A DNA stretch of 37,755 bases from Atractiella rhizophila (GCA_021432655.1 MU271304.1:62001-99755); one strand, 5' to 3'; positions 404-26,974 are shown, counted from the first letter of the stretch. Notes: generated from the letters alone by a model not told the origin. A program made the numbers and translations.

Positions 404-500
404 ACGACTTGGCGGGTTTCGGATTTCACCGCTTATGCTGACTTCTTGTCCTGTTCGAGTACATTTGCATGTACATCTGCGCTTTGTCTGGGTACAGTAG
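1..500 (+). pseudogene. TERT: 3'-truncated TERT copy (end of TRBD/T motif), continuing off the left edge of the window; pseudogene or short isoform gene
   Basis: 1-403 matches 2876-3278 with 3 substitutions seen (205, 245, 328). It encodes ...DLVYWFIDNFLVDVLK / TTFYITESSAYRNRALYFRQDDW...LFQRL, then unrelated sequence. The unspliced frame stops at TAG 498-500; a spliced alternative ends at 526. Confidence 0.75.
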
Positions 501-1022
501 TAGCAATCAACTTCGTCGTGGCTTAGAACTGATGCGAAGAGGTGCGTGGTTCGGTTGTGCAGAAGGTGTCCTTTATGATATTATCTGCTTGACCTTGGCA
601 GTTTGACCCATCAAACGCGTCATAATCCACGCGATAAACTCTACAAAGCTGTAACAGTGTCTTGTTCGATTCATGAATCTTTGAGTTCAATACATCGTTC
701 ACGTCATGAGGAACGCCTCTTGCTTACTTCATGACACTTTCGGCGCACTTGTTAGGAGCCGTTGAATATTTGCAAGTTGGTCATGAAATCGCCAATTTCT
801 TGACCAGGCGGTTCGGGCTACGCGCTAGAATCTGAAGCAAGGACGCTTCTGCTGAGCAGCTGTCAGATTCTTTGTGAAGGATTTCTCTGAGTGAAACTAA
901 TGGTGTACTTTATGTTGCACTCGAGTGTAAGTTTGTGAGGTTGACCATTTACCTGCTATCTCGTCCAATCATATGTGACATCCGTCGATACTAGCAGACT
1001 AACGTTTTTGTGAACTCTCAGG

Positions 1023-4000
1023 ATGGCAGAAACGATGTCGCACCGCGTGCTCTCGTCCTACTTCCCATCCCCAGGACGAGTTTTCACGCTGCTTGAATGG
1101 CTCAGTCCCAATGACCCGACCAGAATCCTCCACATTGACGATCCAGAAGGCTTCCGCCGTTTTCTGAATGATTCTTTGGTTGGGGTTGACTTCGATGCGA
1201 CGACCTGGAAAGGCCCTATTCTGGATACCACGGCACATGGAGAGTCATCTATTGAGGTGGGAAGAGCTATAAAGTTGTGACCCCCATTAATCCATGTTCA
1301 AGTTGATTCGCAAATCTCAACTGAGGTTGTTGAGCGTTGGCGCAACCAAGTCCAGAACAGCAGCTCCGTCCGGTTCTAAATCTTCCCCGCATCCAAAAAA
1401 CATCTTGATACTCGGTTGTTCTAACGTAAGTCTTCCTCTTATGAAGGGATGTGACAATTTTTAACGAGTACCAGGAATCAGGAGGGGTGGCAATCAAATT
1501 TCCGAATACCACTGTGGCATTCTTGGAACAGAATAAAGACATTGCAAAATTAATCGAGAGGTCAATTCTCGACCTTGGGATGACAATGAGCTGACTATAC
1601 AAATAGAGCTGGACCTCATGCTTTCACTCAGTTGCTGACAAGAACATCCTTCTTCCTCTCCTTACCGAACAATTGCTACGTTCAAGTCGCCGGTCCTGCT
1701 CTTTCCGAGCTTCCCCTTCCCGTAGACAAAAAATTGTCACGCATAAGCGCGGCCGATACGCCAAAGGACGGTTCAGCCCGTGGACCACAACCGCTAGAGC
1801 ACACGCAGTCATTGCCGGGACGGTTAATAACGCTGGACCAACCTATATTAAAACGGACAAGGTCATTGGGCGTCGAGACTGAGAGCGAAAACATAAAGAA
1901 ACGAAGGGTTGAAGACGACTCTTCTCCTTCTCTGTGAGGACTTTTACATTAGTTTTGATTTTACTGAGGTTCCGCAGGATAACCGCAAACTCGATTCATT
2001 TTGCCAGAAATCGTATTTTTCATTCTCGTCCTGTGAGACTCTTGACGGGAGGAATAAACTCTGGAGTATCTCCGAACAGTGAGGCACGACCTTTGACTTT
2101 TTGCACGAACAATTAACGAATTTGGCAGATATCCTCAATCGCGTCAAGTTGCTATTTGGTCCTTCCGATGAGAGGGCTCGTCACTTATCCAAATACATGT
2201 TCCCGCGAGCGTATGGCCTACGAAGCTGTTTTGATACCAAAGATGAGCTCAAGGGTTTGTCGGGGATTAAATTCGACGAGCGAGAAAAGGAGATTAAGGT
2301 AAGTAGGAGCATGTCGTTTAACAGCTGATTGTGAGGCGACATGACAGGCTTTGGGAGCGTTGAAAACTCCAAAAAAGATCAAGTCTGTGATCCGTCTGAT
2401 CGAGGAGGTAATACGAAATCACTCACGAGTCGATTATCGCCGCCTGCTGGACCAACATTGTCCCCGACGGTTGGGTCGAGGAGCAAGAAATTGTACAGAG
2501 AATGAAAAAACAAAGGTATGCTTATATCATCCCAAGACAGGTATTTGATACCTCAGAAGGATTCTTTATTGGAAGCTGAGCCTCACACGCAAATATCAAA
2601 GAATGAGGTTAGCTTGGAGGTGTCGCATCCTTCACTGGTTGTGCCTCATGGTGCAAGAGAGGCGAAGGAAGCAGTTCGACTACAGCCGAAGTTTTCTGAA
2701 TATACAATAGCTGCTTACGAGGTATGTGCCAAGTCGTTCCCAACCGTATCTCTGACACTCTGACCTGAAGGTTGAATCTTACGTGAAAGCCATAGCCCTG
2801 GCCATCTTTCCCGCTGATCTCTGGGGCTCGGACACTAATTGGGATATTATGTGGTTCAGTTCATATTTTACTCTCACCATGGAGTTCACACTCACAACCA
2901 TTAGACATCAGCCTTTTTATTCGCGCCCGACGATATGAAACGTTCACGTTGCACACCTTTATGCAAAAACTTCGGCCTAACGACTGCCCCTGGATGGGGT
3001 CGAACACGAATGCCAAGATCACACCCCAAGAAGCAAAAATGCGGATGGAGCTTTTTCAGGATCTTGTCTATTGGTTTATCGATAATTTCTTAGTGGACGT
3101 TTTGAAAGTGAGCCATTTCGTGTGTCGACGCGGCGACGGTGGGCTCAAATGCGCCATAGACAACATTCTACATTACGGAGTCCTCTGCCTATCGAAACCG
3201 TGTCTTATACTTTAGACAAGACGATTGGCACGATATTTGCCAGCCTTTGCTGGGGAAAATGTCGCAGACTCTCTTCCAGCGTCTAGAACTTGTGAGTGAC
3301 ACGCCGACGACAAACTGTGATTTTGACCGCAGAACTAGGAAAAGGCTCAGGCTCTGCTCACCGCTCGCCCACTTGGGTTCTCTAATGTGCGATTATTGCC
3401 CAAGGATACTGGTGTTCGACCCATTGTGAACCTCAAACGGAGGGTAGCAAAGAAGATTGTAACTTTTCTAACTTCCCGTTTCCTCTAGTGACACCAGGGT
3501 AGAAATCAGTCGGTCAACAAAACATTGTGGAGCTTGGTCCTTCAATCAACTTTCTTCTCCAGAACACATTCCAGATTTTGACGTACGAGAAGGTACGCAC
3601 TCTTGAAGTGGCAGCTAGCTTCAACCCCCGCTTACGTGGCAGCAGAATACGAATTCCCGCTTGTTAGGATCATCTGTCTTTGGTCCTAATGAAATATACA
3701 GAAAACTTAAATCTTATAAGTGCCGACTGCTACAACAGCATGGGAAGGTGTAAGCTTTCAGCCTTGTAACACATCGGTACTCACGTTCCAACAGACCTCG
3801 CATGTATTTTGTCAAAGTCGACATTCAGGCATGTTTCGACACAATCAAGCACGAAAAGTTATTTTCTGTGGTAGAGAACATATTGTCTGAGGTGCAGTCC
3901 CCCTATCAAATACCCCATCGTTCTCACACAAGCGATCAGGAGGGGTACATGATTCAGAAGTATGGTGTCGTGCTTCCGGCTGCTGGTAAAATTTCGAGGA

Positions 4001-5475
4001 AGTTCCAACGCCAAGGATGTCCTGACTGTGGGCAACCGCGAAGCAAGCGATCAGTCTGCTAATGAGCCACGGCAGATCAACATGAGTCCTTTCCTGCCCT
4101 AGCGGGAAAACTGGCGGAGGGATTACAACATGCAATCTTCGTGGATTCGGTTATTTACCCCTTTGAGGAGAGTACACGCGTCAAGAGTTTACTCACAGAG
4201 CATATCAAAGAGAATCTTGTGAAAGTGAGCGCAGTATCGTTTCCCGAGGCCAAGCTAAAGACAGTTCAAGATCGGAAATCATTTTTATCAACAGCGAGAT
4301 GGCATTCCCCAAGGCTCAGTCCTGTCTACGATTCTTTGCGCGTGCATTCTTCCATTGCCCTTGATAAAGCAAACATCTTACCTCATTACAGCTTCTTCTA
4401 CGGTGATATGGAGCTAACTGCCCTGACCTTCATTAAGGAGCTTCTTGATGTTTGTTAGTCTCTCGTCGTCCCTTCTCCTCTCAAAGGGCATTAGCTATTA
4501 ATGCGATACACCGACGACTTTCTCTTCATAACACCGGACCCAGATCAAGCCATCAAATTTCTCACTTCAATGTACCGTGGTCATCCAGAATACGGTTGTT
4601 CCATTTCGCTAGGTAAAAGTCTGGTGAACTTTCCAGCCGAGATTGACGGTCAATTCATTGCCTCAATCGGAGCGTCAGAGGGTGCGCTTTCGCTTCCAGT
4701 CTACTCAGTAGCTCAATTAGCCGCAGATTTCCCTTGGTGCGGTTATCTCATTTCTCCACGGGACCTTTCAGTCAAGGGAGATTATAAGCGTCAAACTGGA
4801 TTTAGTACGCCCGTTCCTTCTTTTAGCGCCTGACAGTTCTGTAACTGTGACGCAGATATTGCCGATACGCTCACTGTCGAGTTCTCACGGCGACCTGGGG
4901 AGGTTTTCGCGTACAAAATGCTGCAGTCTATCAAAGCCCGCGCACACATCATCTACAACGATACTGCGCACAATGGATACCAAAATGTCCTACACAATAT
5001 CTATCAAAACTTCTTGCTCACTGCGATGAGATTTAGCAGTTATGTCAAGGTTTGGGGGGTGAGCCTGCGCCGGAGGGAGCCATGGTTCTTAGGTGATTCC
5101 TCTTCTGTCATGGAGGAGTAGCTGACAGATCCTCAGATGTGATTGATCAATGCTGCTATTTCGCTTTCGTGGTGATACGAAATCGGAGTAAGACCAAAAT
5201 AGCCAAAGAATGTGGAGCGGAATGCAATATTTTGCAGCGAGAAGTCGTATGGTCAGCATTCAATCCATACTATTCTAGGAGAATTGATAACCTTTGACAG
5301 GTTGGGGAAACACGCATTTCAGGCCGTTCTCAGTCGACGCCCAAAGCAGTTTTCGTCTGTCGTACTCAAGCTGAAGAAAGACTTAATGAGACGCACTAGC
5401 TCCAAGTTACAATCCAAGCTAGCGAAAGTCACCTCACGAGCTAGGAATGAGGATCTATGGAAAATCAAGTTTTGA
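1023..5475 (+). CDS. TERT: Telomerase reverse transcriptase, full length, multi-exon
   Basis: Spliced translation shows TEN motifs (KNILILG, NNCYVQVAG), CP (YRRLLDQHCP), QFP (WGSDTNW) and the T motif (FYITE...LYFRQDDW). RT motifs follow: 1/2 (VRLLPKDTGVRPIVNL), A (YFVKVDIQACFDTI, 3805), B' (GIPQGSVLS, ~4301), C (LMRYTDDFLFI, 4498), D (GHPEYGCSISLGKS) and E (FPWCGYLI). Stop TGA at 5473-5475. Confidence 0.96.
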
Positions 5476-6986
5476 ACAAGTCACGTTATTATTTGCGTAA
5501 AGAAACTAGTACTTAATTTGGGTTTATGTACATGAAGTCCAGGTATTACTTCCGCTAGAAATGGAATAGAAAAGAGTGTTCCAATCGGAATAGTCTTCGA
5601 TTCGGTGTAAGAAACTTAAAAGAGCGTCCTTCAGAGCTTGACCGTTGTGCGGATAGGTTAGGTTAGTGCGCTGGAGGCGTGGCCGGTGCCTGAGGGGGAG
5701 TTGCTCCGGCGACTCTGTCGAGGAAGCTTCCGGATACTTGTGTCCCTTTCTTGTCTCCAGTCTTCGAGCTGATCTTTGCCGTATCCTTTGCGGCTGCGAC
5801 CTGGGGAATGATCAGTCGGCAATCTGTAAGGTCAAAAGGAGAAACCGACAGCTTCTTCAGGGGGATTCTTGGCTGCTCGACTTAACAGAAACTCCTCCAA
5901 CAAAGCCGCATTACGAGAGTTGGGCTTCCACACAGCATATATGATGTCCCCAGCCAGTGGAATTAGTCCCATACCGCTACCAATCATCACGTTGACAAAC
6001 ATGCGGTCAGTCTAATAATGCCCTATCAGTCAACTCGCGGCGCTGGTGATGAATGGACTCACGAGTGAACGAGGACAGTCAGACTTTTTGATAGGCTTGA
6101 TGATGAGGGTATAAGCAAGCAAAAAGTCTAGGATCCAATCACACAGGGTTCGACACCTCACAGTGCGACAACGTACCCACGATGTCTCCCAAGAAAGGAA
6201 TAAGACCCAGGATTGCCTAGTTGAATATGAGCATCGATTCGCAGCTAGCGGGGGTTAACTCACAGTCCATCCGAAACGGAAACCGCACAGGCTGAAACCT
6301 CTGTCTATCGTCCGACGTCCGACGTCAATGGGTTTCTGCGAAGTGAAATGAGTAAATTACCTAGGTAGTGAGCCCTTCGACGAATCTTTTTCTAAGGAAA
6401 GTTAGGTTGAGCAGAGTTTGTCACATTGGGATGAAAGACGAACAAGGAGCTTTGCATCCTTCTTGCTCAAATTTTCGGGTATCGCCCGCTTTCTCTTCTT
6501 CGTTCGACCCCTCGCATCGACATATTCCTACTCTAGGCATTAAATGGTCTTCCAATGCGACAGAACGAAGACACACCTCATAATGAGGATCCTTGGGCTC
6601 TGTCGGTGCAAATAGATGGGCAAATCAATATAGTAAGAGAACAACATGGGAAATGGAACGGAACGAACCCAAGCCCTTGGCACTGTTCTCAAGGTAGTGA
6701 CCACCTATTTTTTTCGCAATTGTAGACGCCATTAAACACTACGAGTTATTGGTATATGCTGTAATGGCAAGTGTGGGTGCTGCTGATGTGCTCGTTTTGT
6801 GTTGAGAAGGGAAGGGAACAAGGCTTCTTGTCAACAGGACGTCACCAATGTGGAATACAGTTTAGATTAGTTGGCGTCCCCGCGCGCTTATCTGCGCAAC
6901 CGCCACGCGCAACTCCAAGCGCCTCGAATCCAAACCGGCCGTCACCGTGAGCGATATTGGAACAGCTTCAGAATGGAAAACGACCC
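4363..6986 (+). repeat. Tandem segmental duplication, copy A (TERT 3' end, DUF4112 gene, CDC73 promoter and first codons)
   Basis: Matches 6988-9601 at offset 2625 bp. About 7 substitutions seen up to ~6800, then markedly diverged in 6805-6950. Confidence 0.96.
5663..6732 (-). CDS. DUF4112-family membrane protein, copy A (8 exons)
   Basis: Spliced: MASTIAKKIGG...EPKDPHYEEYVDARGRTKKRKRAIPENLSKKDAKLLKKIRRRAHYLDRGFSLCGFRFGWTAILGLIPFLGDIVD...GLIPLAGDIIYAVWKPNSRNAALLEEFL...PPAH*. RFGW/GLIPxxGD/N.RN are typical of fungal DUF4112 proteins. All introns are GT-AG. Confidence 0.88.
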
Positions 6987-8100
6987 AGATAAAGCAAACA
7001 TCTTACCTCATTACAGCTTCTTCTACGGTGATATGGAGCTAACTGCCCTGACCTTCATTAAGGAGCTTCTTGATGTTTGTTAGTCTCTCGTCGTCCCTTC
7101 TCCTCTCAAAGGGCATTAGCTATTAATGCGATACACCGACGACTTTCTCTTCATAACACCGGACCCAGATCAAGCCATCAAATTTCTCACTTCAATGTAC
7201 CGTGGTCATCCAGAATACGGTTGTTCCATTTCGCTAGGTAAAAGTCTGGTGAACTTTCCAGCCGAGATTGACGGTCAATTCATTGCCTCAATCGGAGCGT
7301 CAGAGGGTGCGCTTTCGCTTCCAGTCTACTCAGTAGCTCAATTAGCCGCAGATTTCCCTTGGTGCGGTTATCTCATTTCTCCACGGGACCTTTCAGTCAA
7401 GGGAGATTATAAGCGTCAAACTGGATTTAGTACGCCCGTTCCTTCTTTTAGCGCCTGACAGTTCTGTAACTGTGACGCAGATATTGCCGATACGCTCACT
7501 GTCGAGTTCTCACGGCGACCTGGGGAGGTTTTCGCGTACAAAATGCTGCAGTCTATCAAAGCCCGCGCACACATCATCTACAACGATACTGCGCACAATG
7601 GATACCAAAATGTCCTACACAATATCTATCAAAACTTCTTGCTCACTGCGATGAGATTTAGCAGTTATGTCAAGGTTTGGGGGGTGAGCCTGCGCCGGAG
7701 GGAGCCATGGTTCTTAGGTGATTCCTCTTCTGTCATGGAGGAGTAGCTGACAGATCCTCAGATGTGATTGATCAATGCTGCTATTTCGCTTTCGTGGTGA
7801 TACGAAATCGGAGTAAGACCAAAATAGCCAAAGAATGTGGAGCGGAATGCAATATTTTGCAGCGAGAAGTCGTATGGTCAGCATTCAATCCATACTATTC
7901 TAGGAGAATTGATAACCTTTGACAGGTTGGGGAAACACGCATTTCAGGCCGTTCTCAGTCGACGCCCAAAGCAGTTTTCGTCTGTCGTACTCAAGCTGAA
8001 GAAAGACTTAATGAGACGCACTAGCTCCAAGTTACAATCCAAGCTAGCGAAAGTCACCTCACGAGCTAGGAATGAGGATCTATGGAAAATCAAGTTTTGA
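6973..8100 (+). CDS. Chimeric CDC73(1-5)::TERT C-terminal fragment (end of B', motifs C, D, E, thumb/CTE), ~297 aa predicted
   Basis: ATG GAA AAC GAC CCA (CDC73 start) reads in frame through an intron remnant (DKANILPHYS) into TERT exon FFYGDME. Downstream exons and introns show no differences from 4392-5475 by eye. Predicted exon lengths 102+187+78+237+115+175 = 894 nt. Confidence 0.6.
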
Positions 8101-8287
8101 ACAAGTCACGTTATTATTTGCGTAAAGAAACTAGTACTTAATTTGGGTTTATGTACATGAAGTCCAGGTATTACTTCCGCTAGAAATGGAATAGAAAAGA
8201 GTGTTCCAATCGGAATAGTCTTCGATTCGGTGTAAGAAACTTAAAAGAGCGTCCTTCAGAGCTTGACCGTTGTGCGGATAGGTTAGG

Positions 8288-9357
8288 TTAGTGCGCTGGA
8301 GGCGTGGCCGGTGCCTGAGGGGGAGTTGCTCCGGCGACTCTGTCGAGGAAGCTTCCGGATACTTGTGTCCCTTTCTTGTCTCCAGTCTTCGAGCTGATCT
8401 TTGCCGTATCCTTTGCGGCTGCGACCTGGGGAATGATCAGTCGGCAATCTCTAAGGTCAAAAGGAGAAACCGACAGCTTCTTCAGGGGGATTCTTGGCTG
8501 CTCGACTTAACAGAAACTCCTCCAACAAAGCCGCATTACGAGAGTTGGGCTTCCACACAGCATATATGATGTCCCCAGCCAGTGGAATTAGTCCCATACC
8601 GCTACCGATCATCACATTGACAAACATGCGGTCAGTCTAATAATGCCCTATCAGTCAACTCGCGGCGCTGGTGATGAATGGACTCACGAGTGAACGAGGA
8701 CAGTCAGACTTTTTGATAGGCTTGATGATGAGGGTATAAGCAAGCAAAAAGTCTAGGATCCAATCACACAGGGTTCGACATCTCATAGTGCGACAACGTA
8801 CCCACGATGTCTCCCAAGAAAGGAATAAGACCCAGGATTGCCTAGTTGAATATGAGCATCGATTCGCAGCTAGCGGGGGTTAACTCACAGTCCATCCGAA
8901 ACGGAAACCGCACAGGCTGAAACCCCTGTCTATCGTCCGACGTCCGACGTCAATGGGTTTCTGCGAAGTGAAATGAGTAAATTACCTAGGTAGTGAGCCC
9001 TTCGACGAATCTTTTTCTAAGGAAAGTTAGGTTGAGCAGAGTTTGTCACATTGGGATGAAAGACGAACAAGGAGCTTTGCATCCTTCTTGCTCAAATTTT
9101 CGGGTATCGCCCGCTTTCTCTTCTTCGTTCGACCCCTCGCATCGACATATTCCTACTCTAGGCATTAAATGGTCTTCCAATGCGACAGAACGAAGACACA
9201 CCTCATAATGAGGATCCTTGGGCTCTGTCGGTGCAAATAGATGGGCAAATCAATATAGTAAGAGAACAACATGGGAAATGGAACGGAACGAACCCAAGCC
9301 CTTGGCACTGTTCTCAAGGTAGTGACCACCTATTTTTTTCGCAATTGTAGACGCCAT
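8288..9357 (-). CDS. DUF4112-family membrane protein, copy B
   Basis: Same exon structure as 5663-6732. The differences seen are 3 synonymous and 3 intronic substitutions. Confidence 0.88.
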
Positions 9358-9587
9358 TAAACACTACGAGTTATTGGTATATGCTGTAATGGCAAGCGTG
9401 GGTGCTGCTGATGTGCTCGTTTTGTGTTGACGCAGGGAATGGAACAAGGCTCCTTGTCAACAGGACGTCACCATGAAATACAGTTTACATTGGTTGAGGG
9501 TCCCCGCGCGCTTATCTGCGCACCCGCCACGCGCAACTTGCAACACCTAACCGCCGCCGCCCTTTGCGATATTGGAACAGCTTCAGA
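9358..9587. promoter_or_regulatory. Short divergent promoter between DUF4112 (-) and CDC73 (+); diverged duplicate at 6733-6972
   Basis: About 230 bp between head-to-head ATGs. Contains a TGTTGAC...GTCAACA inverted repeat and CGCG-rich boxes. Confidence 0.6.
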
Positions 9588-11149
9588 ATGGAAAACGACC
9601 CTCTCTTGGTCCTACGCGCCACTCTAACCAACAAACTAACGATAACTCTTCTTGACGACTCCAGTCCCGCCAACGAAGTGTACACCATTTCAGAATGTTC
9701 CTTCCTCTCATTCCCGGTGCTGAATGAGGCTACTAATGCACGCATCACCCTCCCCAAAACCACCCCGACTCGCTTTCGGAAGCCTGGGATGTCGGGGACT
9801 GATCCAACCACGAGTCCCGCCGATTTTTACGACCTCCAAAGCTTGCTCAACGGATATTTAATGTCTAAAAAGTCTTTTGGAGAATACGTCCAGGAGTGTC
9901 ACAAGATGGGAGTCTCGTTTATCTCGGCAACGGAGAGGAAGCAGATGGTAGATTACTTGGATGGAGTTCACGAACACATTCCCTCAGTCATCGAACCTCA
10001 GTACGCAATTCAACAAGAAGGAGGATTAGTGGACATGGACGTGGGAATGGATGGAGCGGATGCAGGAGGAACTCAAATTCCGGATGAACCAAGGGGGACG
10101 AAGAGGCGATATGTTGTGGACAAAGCTGACCAGGAATTTGTTGCGAAGCTCAGTAAACTTCAAGAGGGACGCCAGATTTTGGACAGAAACACAGTTCTTC
10201 GAGGCGTAAAAAAGAATGTATGCATGTTTCCTCCGCACACGAAGTCTAATGACTTGATTCTAGAACTTTGAAAGCGTAAGAACACTCCTCGCAGATCGCA
10301 TAAAGCAATCTCGGGAAGATGCGAAACGACTTTCTCTCCTCTCGCAAAACCCGACCCCGGCGGTTCAGCCTGCAATGACACCATCACAAAAGGTGCAGGA
10401 CAAGAACAAACGTCGCCCTCTCCATCCAATTATCGTCATTTCCCCTTCCTCGACGGCACTAATAACAATGCACAATGTCAAGCATTTCCTCGAAGACGCA
10501 GTGTTCGTGCACCACTTCCCCCTCACTTTGGTTTAATCTAACTCCAAGCACAGGTTCGAATCTTCGGATCAGGCTCGAAAATCTTCAGGAATGAAGATGC
10601 CTGACGACGTCGTGGCTATCCATCACCTTCGTACGACGAGTACAATCAGCGCTTCACTCTCTTCGGGTCAAGGGATTCAACGGCAGGAGGGGCCTCAGAA
10701 AGCCGCCAAGTATTTCGTGGTCGATGGAGTGGATGCGTTGGCAAAGTTCGGAGAGGGAGAGGAGGCTTGGGATCGTGTCGTTTGTGTCATGACAACTGGA
10801 CAGGAGTGGCAGTTTCGCCCTTACAAGTGGTCTGAACCTAAAGAGCTTTTCCATCACGGTTCGTACTACTTGGGTCGTTCTGAGTATGTTGTTCTAATTT
10901 GGCACATCTATGCACTAGTCAAAGGCGTGTATGTTCGATGGACTTCTGATCCGCCCAACCCTAAAGTTCTAGGATGGAACGTAACGGAGCTGAAAGTGCG
11001 CTATATTTCTTACTTTCTGGCTGACAATACTGATATGAATGCCACAGATCGATCCACACAAGCGTCACATTGACAAGAGCGTCGTAGCTGATTTTTGGAG
11101 AAGCTTAGAAGCATGGATAGCCTCCCACAAGCCATGGCTCGCCTTCTAA
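9588..11149 (+). CDS. CDC73: Paf1-complex subunit Cdc73 (parafibromin)
   Basis: MENDPLLVLR... N-terminus, FISATERKQMVDYL, PIIVISPSSTALITMHNVKHFLE, WDRVVCVMTTGQEWQFRPYKWSEPKELF, IDPHKRHIDKSVVADFW...AF*. Confidence 0.93.
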
Positions 11150-18930: not shown

Positions 18931-20639
18931 ATGACAGAGACACGCACACGGCGTTCTTCATCAGTTGCTCAGTATCTTCAAGACCCGCCAAGGGATCATC
19001 ACCTGTGCGTTTTCAGCTAAACCCAGATTGGTCTGACACGCATCCAGAAACCACTTAGGACAAGCATCAGAAGATGTTTCCCCAGCGCAATTTGAGCTAG
19101 AGTCGAAAGTTAAACAAGATAGGGAGGAGACGGGCCTAGAAAAGGAATCCTCGTTCCTTGCCGACTTAATCTCACAGAGGTGGATCACAAATCCGAGTAC
19201 GTCCTTCAAGTGTCAACGGAGCAACAGAGATCGAATGAAAGTCTTCCAGAGTCATCTCTCAAGCTTCTAGTCATAATTGGTTTCTTATACGGCCTTTTTG
19301 AATATCCTCTGGCGCCATTCGTGTCTTCAAATCCCCTCCAACCACTCGTCTTTCCCTCTTACAAATTGGAACCGATTGCGGAGGATGGTGGAGTACCGAA
19401 GTACGGGAAGGGACTGAAAGACATTGTGTTCTTGCTCTTTGGAATCATAGTCTTCAGCTTCGTACGACAGTCGTTCACTTTATGGGTTTGCAAGTGAGTT
19501 TTCCTTCTGCTCCTCAAATCTGAATGGGGCGAAATGGGCCGGTGCCTGGTCTGGTAGGCCGTTTGCACGATGGATGGGGATCAAGAGCGAAGCAAAGCTT
19601 TCTCGGTTCATGGAACAAGGTTATGCTGTCTTCTACTTCGGCTGCACCACAATTGCAGGACTAGTGCGCGGGCTCATTGCTCTTCCCCTCTACCTGCCGT
19701 TTAATCATTTGTACAGTATGTTATGTCGCGAACACCAACGTGGTGGTACGATACAAAACACTTTTGGATCGGTTATCCCCATTGGCGCATGAATCTCGAT
19801 CTTAAGGCTTACTACCTCATACAGTTCTCATACTGGCTGCAGCAGGCCCTCGTGCTGGTGCTTTTGCTCGAGAAGCCGAGAAGTGATTTCTACGAGCTCA
19901 TCGGTCATGTATGTCTTTCTGCTCTTGGAGACGCAAAGATTGATATCCTCATTAGCACATTGTTACTCTTTGGTTGATTGGCTGGAGCTACGGTATCAAC
20001 CTGAATCAGATAGGATGTGCCGTTTTTGTGTCAATGGACTGGGCCGACACAAGCCTTGCGGTCTCACTTAATTTCATCCTTGGGTGATCTGTAGAGCTGA
20101 CGTCTGCTTTCAGCTGGCCAAGTGCTTCAACTATCTGAAGTATGAGATGACGGCAAATACACTCTTCGTGCTGTTTATTGGAACGTGGTCGTACGTGCAG
20201 TGTTAAATTTTGCTTCCACCAGTAGAGTTGACCAACAACGCAGATATTTTCGAATATATCAAAACATTCGCATACTTATTTCTGTCTGGTTCGAATTCGA
20301 CCTCATTCCTGCCTACGCTAAACAATTTACTCCTCACCTCGGAGTGTGGTTAACATGGTGGATGAAATACCAAATCTTTGTACCACTCTTTCTCCTTTTA
20401 TGTCTGAACTTATGTATGTGCTCTCCTCTTTCCCAGACTCAGATGCTGATGAAAGAGGGCAGTCTGGTATGTTCCTCTTGATCAGATTATCGGTAACAAC
20501 GATTAATGATCGTTGAAGGTACTTCTTAATCTGGCGCATTGCCTTTCGTACGATATTCAGAGGAAAGTCTGCAGAAGATGAGAGAGAGGAAGGTGAATCG
20601 GACGACGAAGAAGACCTACAGGAGAAGAAGAAGAAGTGA
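18931..20639 (+). CDS. Ceramide synthase (TLC/Lag1p domain), paralog 1
   Basis: KYGKGLKD, RFMEQGY, Lag1 motif EKPRSDFYELIGH/HIVTLWLIGWSY...MDWAD, C-terminal DEREEGE...KKKK*. Confidence 0.93.
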
Positions 20640-21187: not shown

Positions 21188-22844
21188 ATGTCGGATAGAC
21201 GCACTCGACGCTCTTCTTCCCTGGTACAATATCTACAGGATCCTCCAGGGGATCATCACGTGTGGGTGCAGCTTGTTGAAAGTAAATCAGTTCTCAAATG
21301 AAAAAGGCAGGAACCATCTTGGGACGGTCCATGAAGACGCTATACGAGGTCGACACCATGCGAAGCCTAAGAGACGAGGAGATGTCGATTTCATTAGCGA
21401 CTTAATTTCACAAAAATGGATCATACATCCCGGTTGGTGTTGCGCTCAAACTCCGCGTCGCTACTTACGAAATCGGAAACTTAGAATCGTCTTTCAAGCT
21501 TTTATTACTCATTGCCTTGTCGTTCGCCCTATTCGAATACCCATTGAAGCCATTCGTAGAGTCGAACCCCATATTACCCTTAATTTTTCCCTCCTATAGA
21601 CTCGACCCTCAGCCAGAAGACACGGTCCCGAAATACGGAAAAGGGGCGAAGGACATCCTCTTGTTACTCTTCGGGATAGTATTCTTCAGCTTCCTGCGCG
21701 AATCGTTCACACAATGGGTCTGCCGGTAAGCGTCGGTTTACCTCCCAGACGAAGAATCTCTGCTTAACGCTATCTCACAAGGCCGTTTGCTGAATGGATG
21801 GGCATTAAAAGCGAGGCTAAACTCGCGCGATTCAAGGAGCAAGCCTACACAGTTCTATATTTCAGCTGCAGCTCCATTGCAGGCTTCGTCTGTCCCGACC
21901 TCTGCTCTCATTTTCATATTAATGTTGGGATAGTATGTGATGTCACGAACGCAAACGTGGTGGTATGACACGAAGCATTTTTGGCTCGACTACCCGCAAT
22001 GGCGCATGAACTTTGAGCTCAAAGCATACTACCTCGCTCAATTTTCCTATTGGCTTCATCAGGCAATCGTAATGCTGCTCATGCTGGAGAAACCACGGAG
22101 CGATTTCTACGAGTTGGTGGGCCATGTGCGTTTGCTCTTGCTCTCAAACTGTCGCAATAACGGAAGACTGTAGCACGTTGTCACCTTGTGGCTCATTGGT
22201 TGGAGCTACCTCATCAACCTGAATCAAATCGGAGTGGCAATTTTCGTTACTATGGATTTTAGTGATGCAGTTTTTGCCGTCAGTCTACTTCCACCTCTGC
22301 CATGTGTCCAGCTAATCGCTGAGCAGTCCGCCAAATGTTGCAACTATCTGAAATACTCTAAAACTGCCAATACTATCTTCGTTTTCTTCATTGGAACGTG
22401 GTCGTACGTCATCCTTTACCTCCAGCATGCTTTCATTGCAGGTTCATGACAGACGTCCACAGCTACTTTCGAATATATCAAAACGTCCGAATCCTCCATT
22501 CCGTCTGGTACGAATTCGATTTGATCCCGGAGTATGCGAAACAATTCACACCTCATCTCGGAGTGTGGTTAACCTGGTGGATGAAATACCAGATATTTGT
22601 CCCACTCTTCCTGCTCCTATGCCTTAACCTATGTAAGAGCTCTCCTCTTGCAGAATATTGACGCTGATAAGGGATACAGTCTGGTATGTTCCAACAACTT
22701 CGAATTTAAGATGCACTGACTGCTGGTTGGAGGTACTTCCTCATTTGGCGAGTGGCGATGCGTACAGTGTTCAGAGGGGAATCAGCGGAGGACGAGAGGG
22801 AAGAGGGGGAAGACGATGATGAGGAGGACAAGAAGGACAAGTAG
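21188..22844 (+). CDS. Ceramide synthase (TLC/Lag1p domain), paralog 2
   Basis: Same exon architecture as paralog 1. EKPRSDFYELVGH/HVVTLWLIGWSY...MDFSD; ends EDKKDK*. Confidence 0.93.
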
Positions 22845-25844: not shown

Positions 25845-26974
25845 ATGCCGACAAAAGGAGGGCGGGAAGCGAAGGAAGCTTACTTCCAAAAGCTTAGGAG
25901 TTATATCGAGACTTATCGTAGGTTTATTCTCCCTTCCTCACCATGCTCAATGGTACTGCAGCATCCATCTTCATCGTAAACGTTGACAATGTGGGATCAA
26001 CTCAAATGCATCAAGTTCGACAATCGCTCAGGGGAAAGGCTACTGTGTTGATGGGCAAGAACACCATGGTCAGGCGTGCTATCAAGGGAATGCTTGGCGA
26101 CTTCCCTCAGTTCGAAAAGTTCCTTCCTCACGTCAAAGGCAATATTGGATTTGTCTTCACTTCCGGAGACCTGAAGGATGTTCGCGACCTTATTATTGCC
26201 AACAAGGTGAAAGCTCCCGCTAGAGCTGGCGCTCTTGCCCCTCTCGACGTCACTGTTCCTGCTGGAAACACCGGAATGGAACCGGGCAAAACCTCGTTCT
26301 TTCAAGCTTTGAACATTCCTACCAAGATCGCAAGAGGAACCATCGAAATCACCAGCGACGTTCACCTCGTTCAAGCGGGTACCAGGGTCGGCGCTTCCGA
26401 AGCTACCCTCTTGAACATGTTGAACATTTCGCCTTTCACCTACGGCATGACTGGTGCGCACATTTACTTTTCCGAATGGTCCTGATCTCACGTCCAAATT
26501 AGTCGTTCAAGTTTTCGATAACGGAAATGTGTTTTCTCCCAGTGTCCTCGATATCACGGATGAACAACTCCTGAAAACCTTCCAAAGCGGAATCCAGACC
26601 ATCACCGCTATATCTTTGGCCACTAAATATCCCACTCTTCCGAGTGTTACTCATTCCCTCGTCAATGCCTACAAGAACTTGTTATCCGTATCCCTCGCCA
26701 CGGAATTCGAATTCGAGGGATCCAAGCAGGTTTGTCTCACTTTCATTCATCGGAGCCGTTGCCGACCAATTAAACAGCTCAAAGATCGTCTGGCCAATCC
26801 GGAACTCTACGCCGCCGCTGCTCCTGTTGCTGCTGAAGAAAGCAAAGCCGAAGCCAAAGTTGAGGAAGCTCCGAAGGAGGAGGAAGATGAATCTGGTTCT
26901 GATGTACGTTCATCTTTTCTCCCCAGGATACCAAGCTGACGCATGTTTAGATCGGGTTCTCTCTCTTCGATTAA
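25845..26974 (+). CDS. RPP0: 60S acidic ribosomal protein P0 (uL10)
   Basis: [71 protein letters not shown], acidic tail ending IGFSLFD*. Confidence 0.97.

Follow-up and report, generated by a model that had tools for sequence, protein, structure and literature searches.

Positions 6973 to 8100 of a 37,755-nucleotide stretch from Atractiella rhizophila (the window throughout this text; the species is a basidiomycete of the Pucciniomycotina, Atractiellales, by taxonomy look-up) contain a reading frame that begins with the first codons of CDC73 and continues into the 3' exons of the telomerase gene, TERT. This arrangement raises the question of whether the frame is a new gene that acquired the CDC73 promoter, as the first-pass annotation proposed, or whether it has some other origin. 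We conclude that the CDC73::TERT frame is probably not a working new gene and that the organism itself most likely does not have this fusion at all. At roughly even confidence, we read it as the seam of a head-to-tail repeat that arose when a haplotype piece was put in series during assembly.

The window is eukaryotic in character, with short GT..AG introns of 44 to 69 nt and a G+C content of 44 to 50% (1-kb windows), and an exon of ribosomal protein P0 within it matches a protein of Atractiella rhizophila at NCBI with 100% identity. Protein searches gave best identities of 53 to 67% for a TERT exon (Tilletia and Ustilago) and of 34% for the N-terminal part of CDC73, with no 100% match for either. 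The sole full-length TERT in the window ends at a stop codon at 5473-5475, and CDC73 was recognized by Pfam matches to CDC73_C (E = 9.4e-26) and CDC73_N (E = 0.001, below the cut-off). The features of these genes that bear on the question are as follows.

1590-1937, + strand: TERT TEN match (Pfam/tblastn)
2796-3215, + strand: TERT TRBD match (Pfam/tblastn)
3279-4362 (1084 nt), + strand: single-copy middle of TERT (no self-match in self-BLAST; ORFs; tblastn)
3754-4062, + strand: RVT_1 match, motif A region (Pfam E = 3e-4, below the cut-off)
4342-4391, + strand: native TERT intron, 50 nt (sequence; loose ends of spliced contigs)
9588-11073, + strand: native CDC73, from the CDS start through the CDC73_C region (Pfam)
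25961-26449: ribosomal protein P0 exon, 163 aa

The fusion frame begins just before the junction of a direct repeat. Self-BLAST recovered 4363-6986 and 6988-9601 as head-to-tail copies with 98.63% identity over 2627 columns and a period of 2625, and the parts of this repeat that matter here are the following.

4363-6986 (2624 nt), + strand: copy 1 of the 2.6-kb unit, with TERT 3' exons, a DUF4112 gene, a promoter block, and the CDC73 5'UTR, ATG and 11 further nt
6951-6986, + strand: 36-nt stretch identical in both copies (last part of the CDC73 5'UTR, then the ATG at 6973 with the 11 bases that follow it)
6987, + strand: unmatched A at the seam, which neither parent has
6988-9601, + strand: copy 2 of the 2.6-kb unit, with the second DUF4112 copy and the promoter of native CDC73

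The seam (6980-6994) reads ACGACCC-A-GATAAAG. Its left parent is CDC73, broken as GACCC/TCTC (9597-9605), and its right parent is the TERT intron, broken as CCCTT/GATAAAG, so that the right-hand parental breakpoint (4362/4363) falls inside the native intron at 4342-4391. The CCCT microhomology pointed out in the first-pass annotation was confirmed in both parental sequences (AACGACCCTCTC at 9594-9605 in CDC73; TGCCCTTGATAAAG at 4356-4369 in the TERT intron). A CCC near the join is common to the two parents and, with the one filler base, gives the seam the look of an ordinary end-joining product. There is no N anywhere in the window, and no piece boundary is visible at the seam in a sequence that does not itself display assembly contig boundaries. 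A metagenome scan returned 0 matches for a 39-nt sequence spanning the seam; this count carries no information, because the same scan also returned 0 for the 36-nt stretch shared with the native locus.

We then reconstructed the spliced frame that crosses this seam.

6973-7074, 7120-7305, 7351-7429, 7481-7715, 7760-7875, 7925-8100, + strand: fusion frame, six exons, 297 aa (spliced translation)

The frame starts at the CDC73 ATG at 6973 and comprises 894 nt (297 aa plus the stop), of which CDC73 contributes 5 residues, the seam with the intron remnant 10 and TERT the other 282. Beyond the seam, the second copy retains 29 nt of the TERT intron (6988-7016) that lack an upstream donor and read open. 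The claim that a junction reading GAC CCA GAT AAA places the CDC73 ATG in frame with TERT is therefore reproduced, and all five introns of the frame appear as GT..AG joints in one of the sequencing runs described below (X3, contig 7). The earlier description of the product also holds: it retains motif C (RYTDDFL, with the YTDD signature), motifs C to E as a whole and the C-terminal domain (TERT_C Pfam match, E = 3.9e-8). It begins after motif B' and lacks TEN, TRBD, motif A and motif B', the last two of which (VDIQACFDTI and QQRDGIPQGS, respectively) lie in the single-copy middle of TERT. The full set of elements of an active TERT (TEN, TRBD, motifs 1, 2, A, B', C, D and E, and the C-terminal extension) is thus incomplete, and with TEN, TRBD, motif A, motif B', the fingers and half of the palm missing, the product cannot polymerize. 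In the assembly, the arrangement is that of a tandem-duplication chimera, namely, head-to-tail copies with a unique junction, at which a start codon and its upstream region stand in frame with 3' exons.

An open frame of this kind is not surprising in itself. Each breakpoint from 4342 to 5300 was paired with the 14-nt head of CDC73, using a filler of 0, 1 or 2 bases, and the RNA-supported introns were applied; 294, 295 and 296 of the 959 breakpoints, respectively, gave a frame free of stops up to the native TERT stop, i.e., 31% whatever the filler length. This bears out the estimate of roughly one in three given with the original proposal. It also leaves the term "frame-restoring" without support, as selection is not needed to account for the frame. 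The proposed history, in which a clean CCCT join was followed by a change of TT to A, finds no counterpart in the data: no intermediate was seen, and what the seam contains is one unmatched A in a frame with a chance probability of about 0.31. An additional feature of the copy-1 5'UTR is a GTGAGC at 6947. The retained acceptor at 7016 lies 70 nt downstream of it, and use of this GTGAGC as a donor would remove the fusion ATG by splicing.

The repeat unit holds more than the two parents of the fusion. Between TERT and CDC73 lies a gene of the DUF4112 family, present in both copies.

5663-6732, - strand: DUF4112-family gene, copy 1, nine exons, 215 aa
8288-9357, - strand: DUF4112 copy 2 (CDS), encoding the same protein as copy 1

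Its nine-exon structure follows from eight CT..AC joints between 5796 and 6669 in spliced contigs of three runs (X3, X4 and X5), and its largest exon (5847-6011, 55 aa), used alone as a query, matched PF13430 at E = 2.4e-11, its score of 44.2 bits exceeding the cut-off of 23.3. This gene and TERT converge at their 3' ends, with one X3 contig passing through both, whereas at the 5' end a short promoter shared with CDC73 separates the two genes. Besides the TERT tail, the 2.6-kb unit accordingly carries the whole DUF4112 gene, a bidirectional promoter and the first 14 nt of CDC73.

A second direct repeat lies on the other side of the intact TERT. Positions 1-403 match 2876-3278 with 99.3% identity and a period of 2875 (self-BLAST), with three mismatches (at 205, 245 and 328), and tblastn matches of basidiomycete TERT proteins cover 8-479 as well as 2883-3575. 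Two further features thereby come into view.

1-403, + strand: end of an upstream partial TERT copy (TRBD/T-motif region); copy 1 of this repeat, which runs past the left window edge
404-6986 (6583 nt, 6.6 kb), + strand: middle piece with the TERT upstream region, complete TERT, DUF4112, the promoter block and 14 nt from the start of the CDC73 CDS

At 403/404 the partial TERT copy abuts the region upstream of the complete TERT. The order of the locus is thus a left part that ends at the equivalent of 3278, the piece 404-6986, and a right part that begins at the equivalent of 4363, with the middle piece overlapping its left neighbor by 2875 nt and its right neighbor by 2624 nt. Only 3279-4362, between the two repeats, is single copy. 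In the remaining 28 kb of the window, self-BLAST found no other recent repeat and one pair at 71% identity. The first-pass annotation had overlooked both the DUF4112 gene and this second repeat.

The two copies of the 2.6-kb unit do not differ evenly along their length. Over 4363-5825 (TERT tail and 3'UTR, 1463 nt) there are 0 differences; over 5826-6772 (~950 nt) there are 7 substitutions, a contrast with the preceding segment that is significant (Fisher P = 0.0017). Three of these substitutions lie inside DUF4112 exons and are silent, which leaves the protein the same in both copies. The greatest divergence is concentrated in one block.

6806-6950 (145 nt), strand not assigned: hypervariable block in its copy-1 version, between the DUF4112 and CDC73 transcript starts

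Compared with 9431-9565, this block has 15 substitutions and 7 indel events, a divergence of about 20%. A young duplication from one template should be uniformly identical, and an old one should have accumulated changes in the TERT tail as well. By their sequences, the copies differ as alleles do and not as the products of a young duplication would.

Sequencing runs gave an independent view of the same region. A word search found 23 runs, and contigs of four of them (X1, X3, X4 and X5) were compared with 5500-8100; the other 19, with small word shares, carry no weight here. X1 is a DNA run with the same organism label as another run, X2, and contains 0.83 of the sampled words; X3 contains 0.48. 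The contigs of X3 and X5 are spliced, which identifies these runs as RNA. The runs are probably from strains other than the assembled isolate. Base 6987 is covered by contigs in 0 of the 4 runs, and by none among all 6 contigs of X1, a count to be read with the nature of the data in mind: these are contigs and not raw reads, from which rare variants are dropped, so that they show presence and not absence. X4 is without cover over 6805-8100 and X5 over most of 6892-8100, and neither is informative on the seam.

Where the runs are informative, they display the native arrangement. In X1 the locus is unduplicated, as both parental breakpoints are passed without a branch: contig 1 (2592 nt) leads from the native TERT intron (loose end ...CATTGCCCTT before 6988) unbranched into the TERT tail and 3'UTR, and contig 6 continues from 6951-6986 directly into native CDC73 (TCTCTTGG...). 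The same continuation of 6951-6986 into native CDC73 is present in X3, which also contains the native CDC73 5' end with a 5'UTR resembling copy 2. At the acceptor next to the seam, the native TERT splice is the only one present in spliced contigs of X3 and X5, the loose ends of which, before 7017 (X3) and 7018 (X5), carry the upstream exon ...GATTCTTTGCGC; these runs perhaps come from strains without the duplication. The claim of a new gene made by promoter capture thus stands in one part, in that the CDC73 upstream region, its ATG and 14 nt of its CDS are in frame with the last six TERT exons in the assembly, but falls short in the other, as the junction was found in 0 of 4 runs, the DNA run and the spliced runs showing only the native arrangement.

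X1 also contains the copy-1 variants. Contig 5 (205 nt, 6776-6980) matches the copy-1 block with 0 differences at a depth of 70.5, against about 225 to 259 in the flanks, and contig 2 (125 nt) likewise agrees with copy 1 at 5982/5991 (0 differences, depth 72), its alternative, contig 3, having a depth of 152. The majority contigs carry the copy-2 letter at all seven differing sites in 5826-6772, and there are 13 further sites, between 5847 and 7179, at which they depart from both copies in the window. At this single-copy locus X1 therefore has two or more haplotypes. One of these is identical to copy 1 wherever it is seen, and the copy-1-specific variants behave in X1 as minority alleles, the pattern that marks a heterotype false duplication. 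X1 is not simply the assembled sequence, nor is it demonstrably the assembled isolate.

Other sources of the differences between the copies were considered and set aside. Outside the block, 9 of 10 substitutions are transitions, 5 of them at CpG, as RIP-like mutation might produce; their direction is mixed between the copies and they are indistinguishable from ordinary polymorphism. Error-prone synthesis at the junction is rejected as the source of the differences in 6806-6950, since the block occurs as an allele in X1, where the locus is unduplicated. Copy 1 might also have ended at a de Bruijn unitig end, given that its last variant lies at 6950 (6950 + 36 = 6986, k = 37). This is not supported by the other repeat, the last mismatch of which (328) lies 75 nt from its seam, and it is also opposed by the lack of any variant 36 nt inside the start of copy 2.

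The whole DUF4112 gene within the unit, the second repeat and the allele-like differences together make an artifact at least as likely as a real duplication. What is observed is the geometry, the allele-like differences and the native arrangement in the other runs; the presence of both haplotypes in the assembled isolate, and their serial joining by the assembler, are inferred. In this scenario, the isolate would be heterozygous (dikaryotic or heterokaryotic), and the piece 404-6986 would be its second haplotype, placed end to end with the first instead of merged with it, i.e., a heterotype false duplication. The unmatched A at 6987 would be noise at the end of the piece, and the organism would have one TERT, one DUF4112 gene, one CDC73 and no CDC73::TERT gene. 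A single unmerged overlapping piece explains both repeats (2875 and 2625 nt) around 1084 single-copy bases, and one event thereby covers the repeats, the single-copy spacer and the allele-like differences. It also accounts for the identity of copy 1 with an allele found in nature, for the unmatched base at the seam and for the lack of this seam outside the assembly.

Errors of this type are well documented. The relevant passages of Rhie et al. (2021, PMC8081667) place heterotype false duplications among the commonest assembly errors and note that they can be misread as exon or gene duplications. The present locus resembles the cases treated in those passages in its adjacent copies, its haplotype-type variants and the occurrence of these variants as alleles of a single-copy locus in read-derived contigs. 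It departs from them in its continuity: in the same passages (PMC8081667), the classical scaffold artifact leaves a gap, and a second kind of false duplication arises at contig boundaries, with a length of about that of a read. The described cases usually have a gap or a contig boundary; the present sequence runs on without interruption and has a single odd base at its seam. The uninterrupted window, free of N where a classical artifact would leave a gap, and a seam that resembles end joining are points against an artifact. So is the fact that a twofold template switch between homologues in the course of repair would yield the same mosaic.

In the human copy-number variation literature, duplication-normal-duplication rearrangements are ascribed to replicative template switching. 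Like the present locus, they consist of two direct duplications around a short normal spacer, and their joins show small insertions and homology that is short or imperfect; unlike it, they are derived from one template, whereas here the copies carry different natural alleles. The principal alternative, which we regard as a serious if tentative one, is that the locus contains a real, complex duplication private to the isolate and without consequence for telomerase, with the fusion ORF as its by-product. Such a duplication would have come from a replication or repair event with two backward jumps (from 3278 to 404 and afterwards from 6986 to 4363), or from two tandem duplications that took place separately, and would have left an extra TERT 5' fragment, an extra DUF4112 gene and the frame joining the CDC73 start to the TERT tail. 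The continuous sequence without N and the seam with its short shared CCC and 1-nt filler, like that of end joining, speak for it, as do the two DUF4112 copies, both intact and encoding the same protein. The absence of the seam from the runs is compatible with it, as neither X1 (0.83) nor X3 (0.48) matches the window throughout. In X1 in particular, the majority of which differs at 13 sites, a missing junction is equally expected under a real strain-private duplication.

Gene-boundary-ignoring tandem duplications are, in addition, a known and common source of chimeras. The portions of Rogers et al. (2017, PMC5460883) on which we draw report 76 chimeras among 1116 duplications in Drosophila yakuba. 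The arrangement described there is alike in that the promoter and start of a downstream gene are joined to the 3' end of an upstream gene, with the intervening gene duplicated whole. The Drosophila duplications (PMC5460883) were confirmed in reads and changes in expression were measured, whereas the present seam is known from the assembly alone. Several observations weigh against a private duplication. Two recent repeats in the same gene within 10 kb are improbable unless they arose in one complex event. Copies of one haplotype should be uniformly identical, yet the 145-nt block is about 20% diverged and occurs as an allele in X1, so that template switching between homologues or later recombination with other haplotypes would have to be added to account for it. 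Finally, the seam is found in 0 of 4 runs. Were the duplication real, its product would most likely be inert or unstable, and the true change would be one in the dosage of the DUF4112 gene. The by-product may nonetheless be transcribed, because the copy-1 promoter block is a natural allele of the CDC73/DUF4112 promoter.

The reading closest to the original proposal, in which the frame is a real, selected and expressed gene that places the TERT palm (motifs C, D and E) and thumb under the CDC73 promoter, e.g., as a telomerase modulator or a dominant-negative form, appears to us highly improbable. It can draw on the open frame of 297 aa with RNA-supported introns that ends in the native last exon, and on the naturally occurring allele that constitutes its upstream promoter block. 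Its sole outside support comes from an artificial human TERT C-terminal fragment, the vector-driven expression of which in tumor cells is reported to be associated with telomere dysfunction and growth effects. The human fragment is alike in being a TERT C terminus without the catalytic core and differs in that the present frame also has motifs C to E and a 15-residue foreign N terminus. Set against these points are the chance probability of an in-frame outcome (P = 0.31), the TERT tails with 0 differences, which give no signal of divergence or selection, and the count of 0 junction-bearing contigs in the RNA-type runs, the strains of which may lack the duplication. The sequence of clean join and later TT-to-A change that this reading invokes is without evidence, and the GTGAGC at 6947 might, if it acts as a donor, splice the ATG away.

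More improbable still is an extension of this reading, in which the rearrangement would be real and three TERT-derived transcription units would lie next to one another: the intact gene, flanked by a TEN/TRBD fragment from the N terminus that the TERT promoter drives and by the CDC73-driven palm (C, D and E) with the thumb. The two fragments would act on telomerase in trans, as decoys for the RNA or for telomere partners. Were it correct, it would represent a natural split, dominant-negative telomerase module in a root-endophytic basidiomycete.

The readings differ in what they would mean for the annotation of this genome. A real duplication would add a further strain-private chimera to a well-known class. 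Its interest would be modest and would lie in the capture of a part of telomerase, given that a C-terminal TERT fragment has biological activity in human cells. If the repeats reflect haplotypes placed in series, as we favor, annotation of the assembly would contain three spurious entries (a TERT-like gene, an additional DUF4112 gene and a TERT 5' fragment), and the locus would serve as a clean example of how serial haplotypes imitate "promoter capture". Transcripts of the fusion, should they occur, would be marked by the junction-spanning sequence GGAAAACGACCCAGATAAAGC.

The two copies of the tandem 2.6-kb unit differ most in the interval from which the DUF4112-family gene and CDC73 are divergently transcribed, and the assembly is compared here with sequencing runs X1 (DNA) and X3 (containing spliced contigs). 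The features concerned, and two further repeats in the window, are as follows.

Features of the window considered here
5663-6732 and 8288-9357, minus strand: two assembly copies of the DUF4112-family gene, nine exons, 215 aa
6806-6950 versus 9431-9565: hypervariable stretch of 145 nt that separates the transcript starts of the divergently oriented DUF4112 and CDC73 genes
1-403 versus 2876-3278: second direct repeat, period 2875, 3 mismatches, seam 403/404
19715-20475 versus 21932-22692: older direct repeat, 71% identity over 778 columns

Situated between TERT and CDC73, the DUF4112-family gene is convergent with TERT, its 3' end facing that of TERT. Its exons are very small (24 to 166 nt), and its two assembly copies encode an identical protein. 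The two versions of the hypervariable stretch in the window differ by ~20%, in addition to indels, and a third version of the CDC73 5' untranslated region (UTR) is present in X3, as a loose end before position 6951. Two haplotypes are found in X1 at a depth ratio of ~1:2 (72 versus 152 at 5952-6076), and the copy 1 version of the stretch is the minority allele, with a depth of 70 at 6776-6980 versus 225 to 259 in the flanks. The summed depth of the two branches falls ~30 below that of the flanks; therefore, X1 does not come from a simple haploid culture, and there may be a third variant, dropped from the contigs.

The CDC73 5' UTR of copy 1 reads GTGAGC at 6947-6952, where copy 2 has TTTGCG, placing a candidate splice donor 70 nt upstream of the TERT acceptor (7015-7016) that is retained in copy 2 without its own donor. 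Were this motif used, the ATG at 6973, which opens the CDC73-TERT fusion frame, would be lost by splicing.

No protein identical to that encoded by the duplicated TERT exon (4495-4680 and 7120-7305) was found in a collection of 5.8 billion proteins; a 100% protein match exists for another gene in the window, P0. A. rhizophila TERT may be without a public gene model. On the 5' side, the complete gene is preceded by a partial TERT copy, left by the second direct repeat and extending through the T-motif. The frame of this partial copy is open across the seam and reaches a stop at 498-500, and over the first nine bases beyond the seam, the two sequences still match at five positions.
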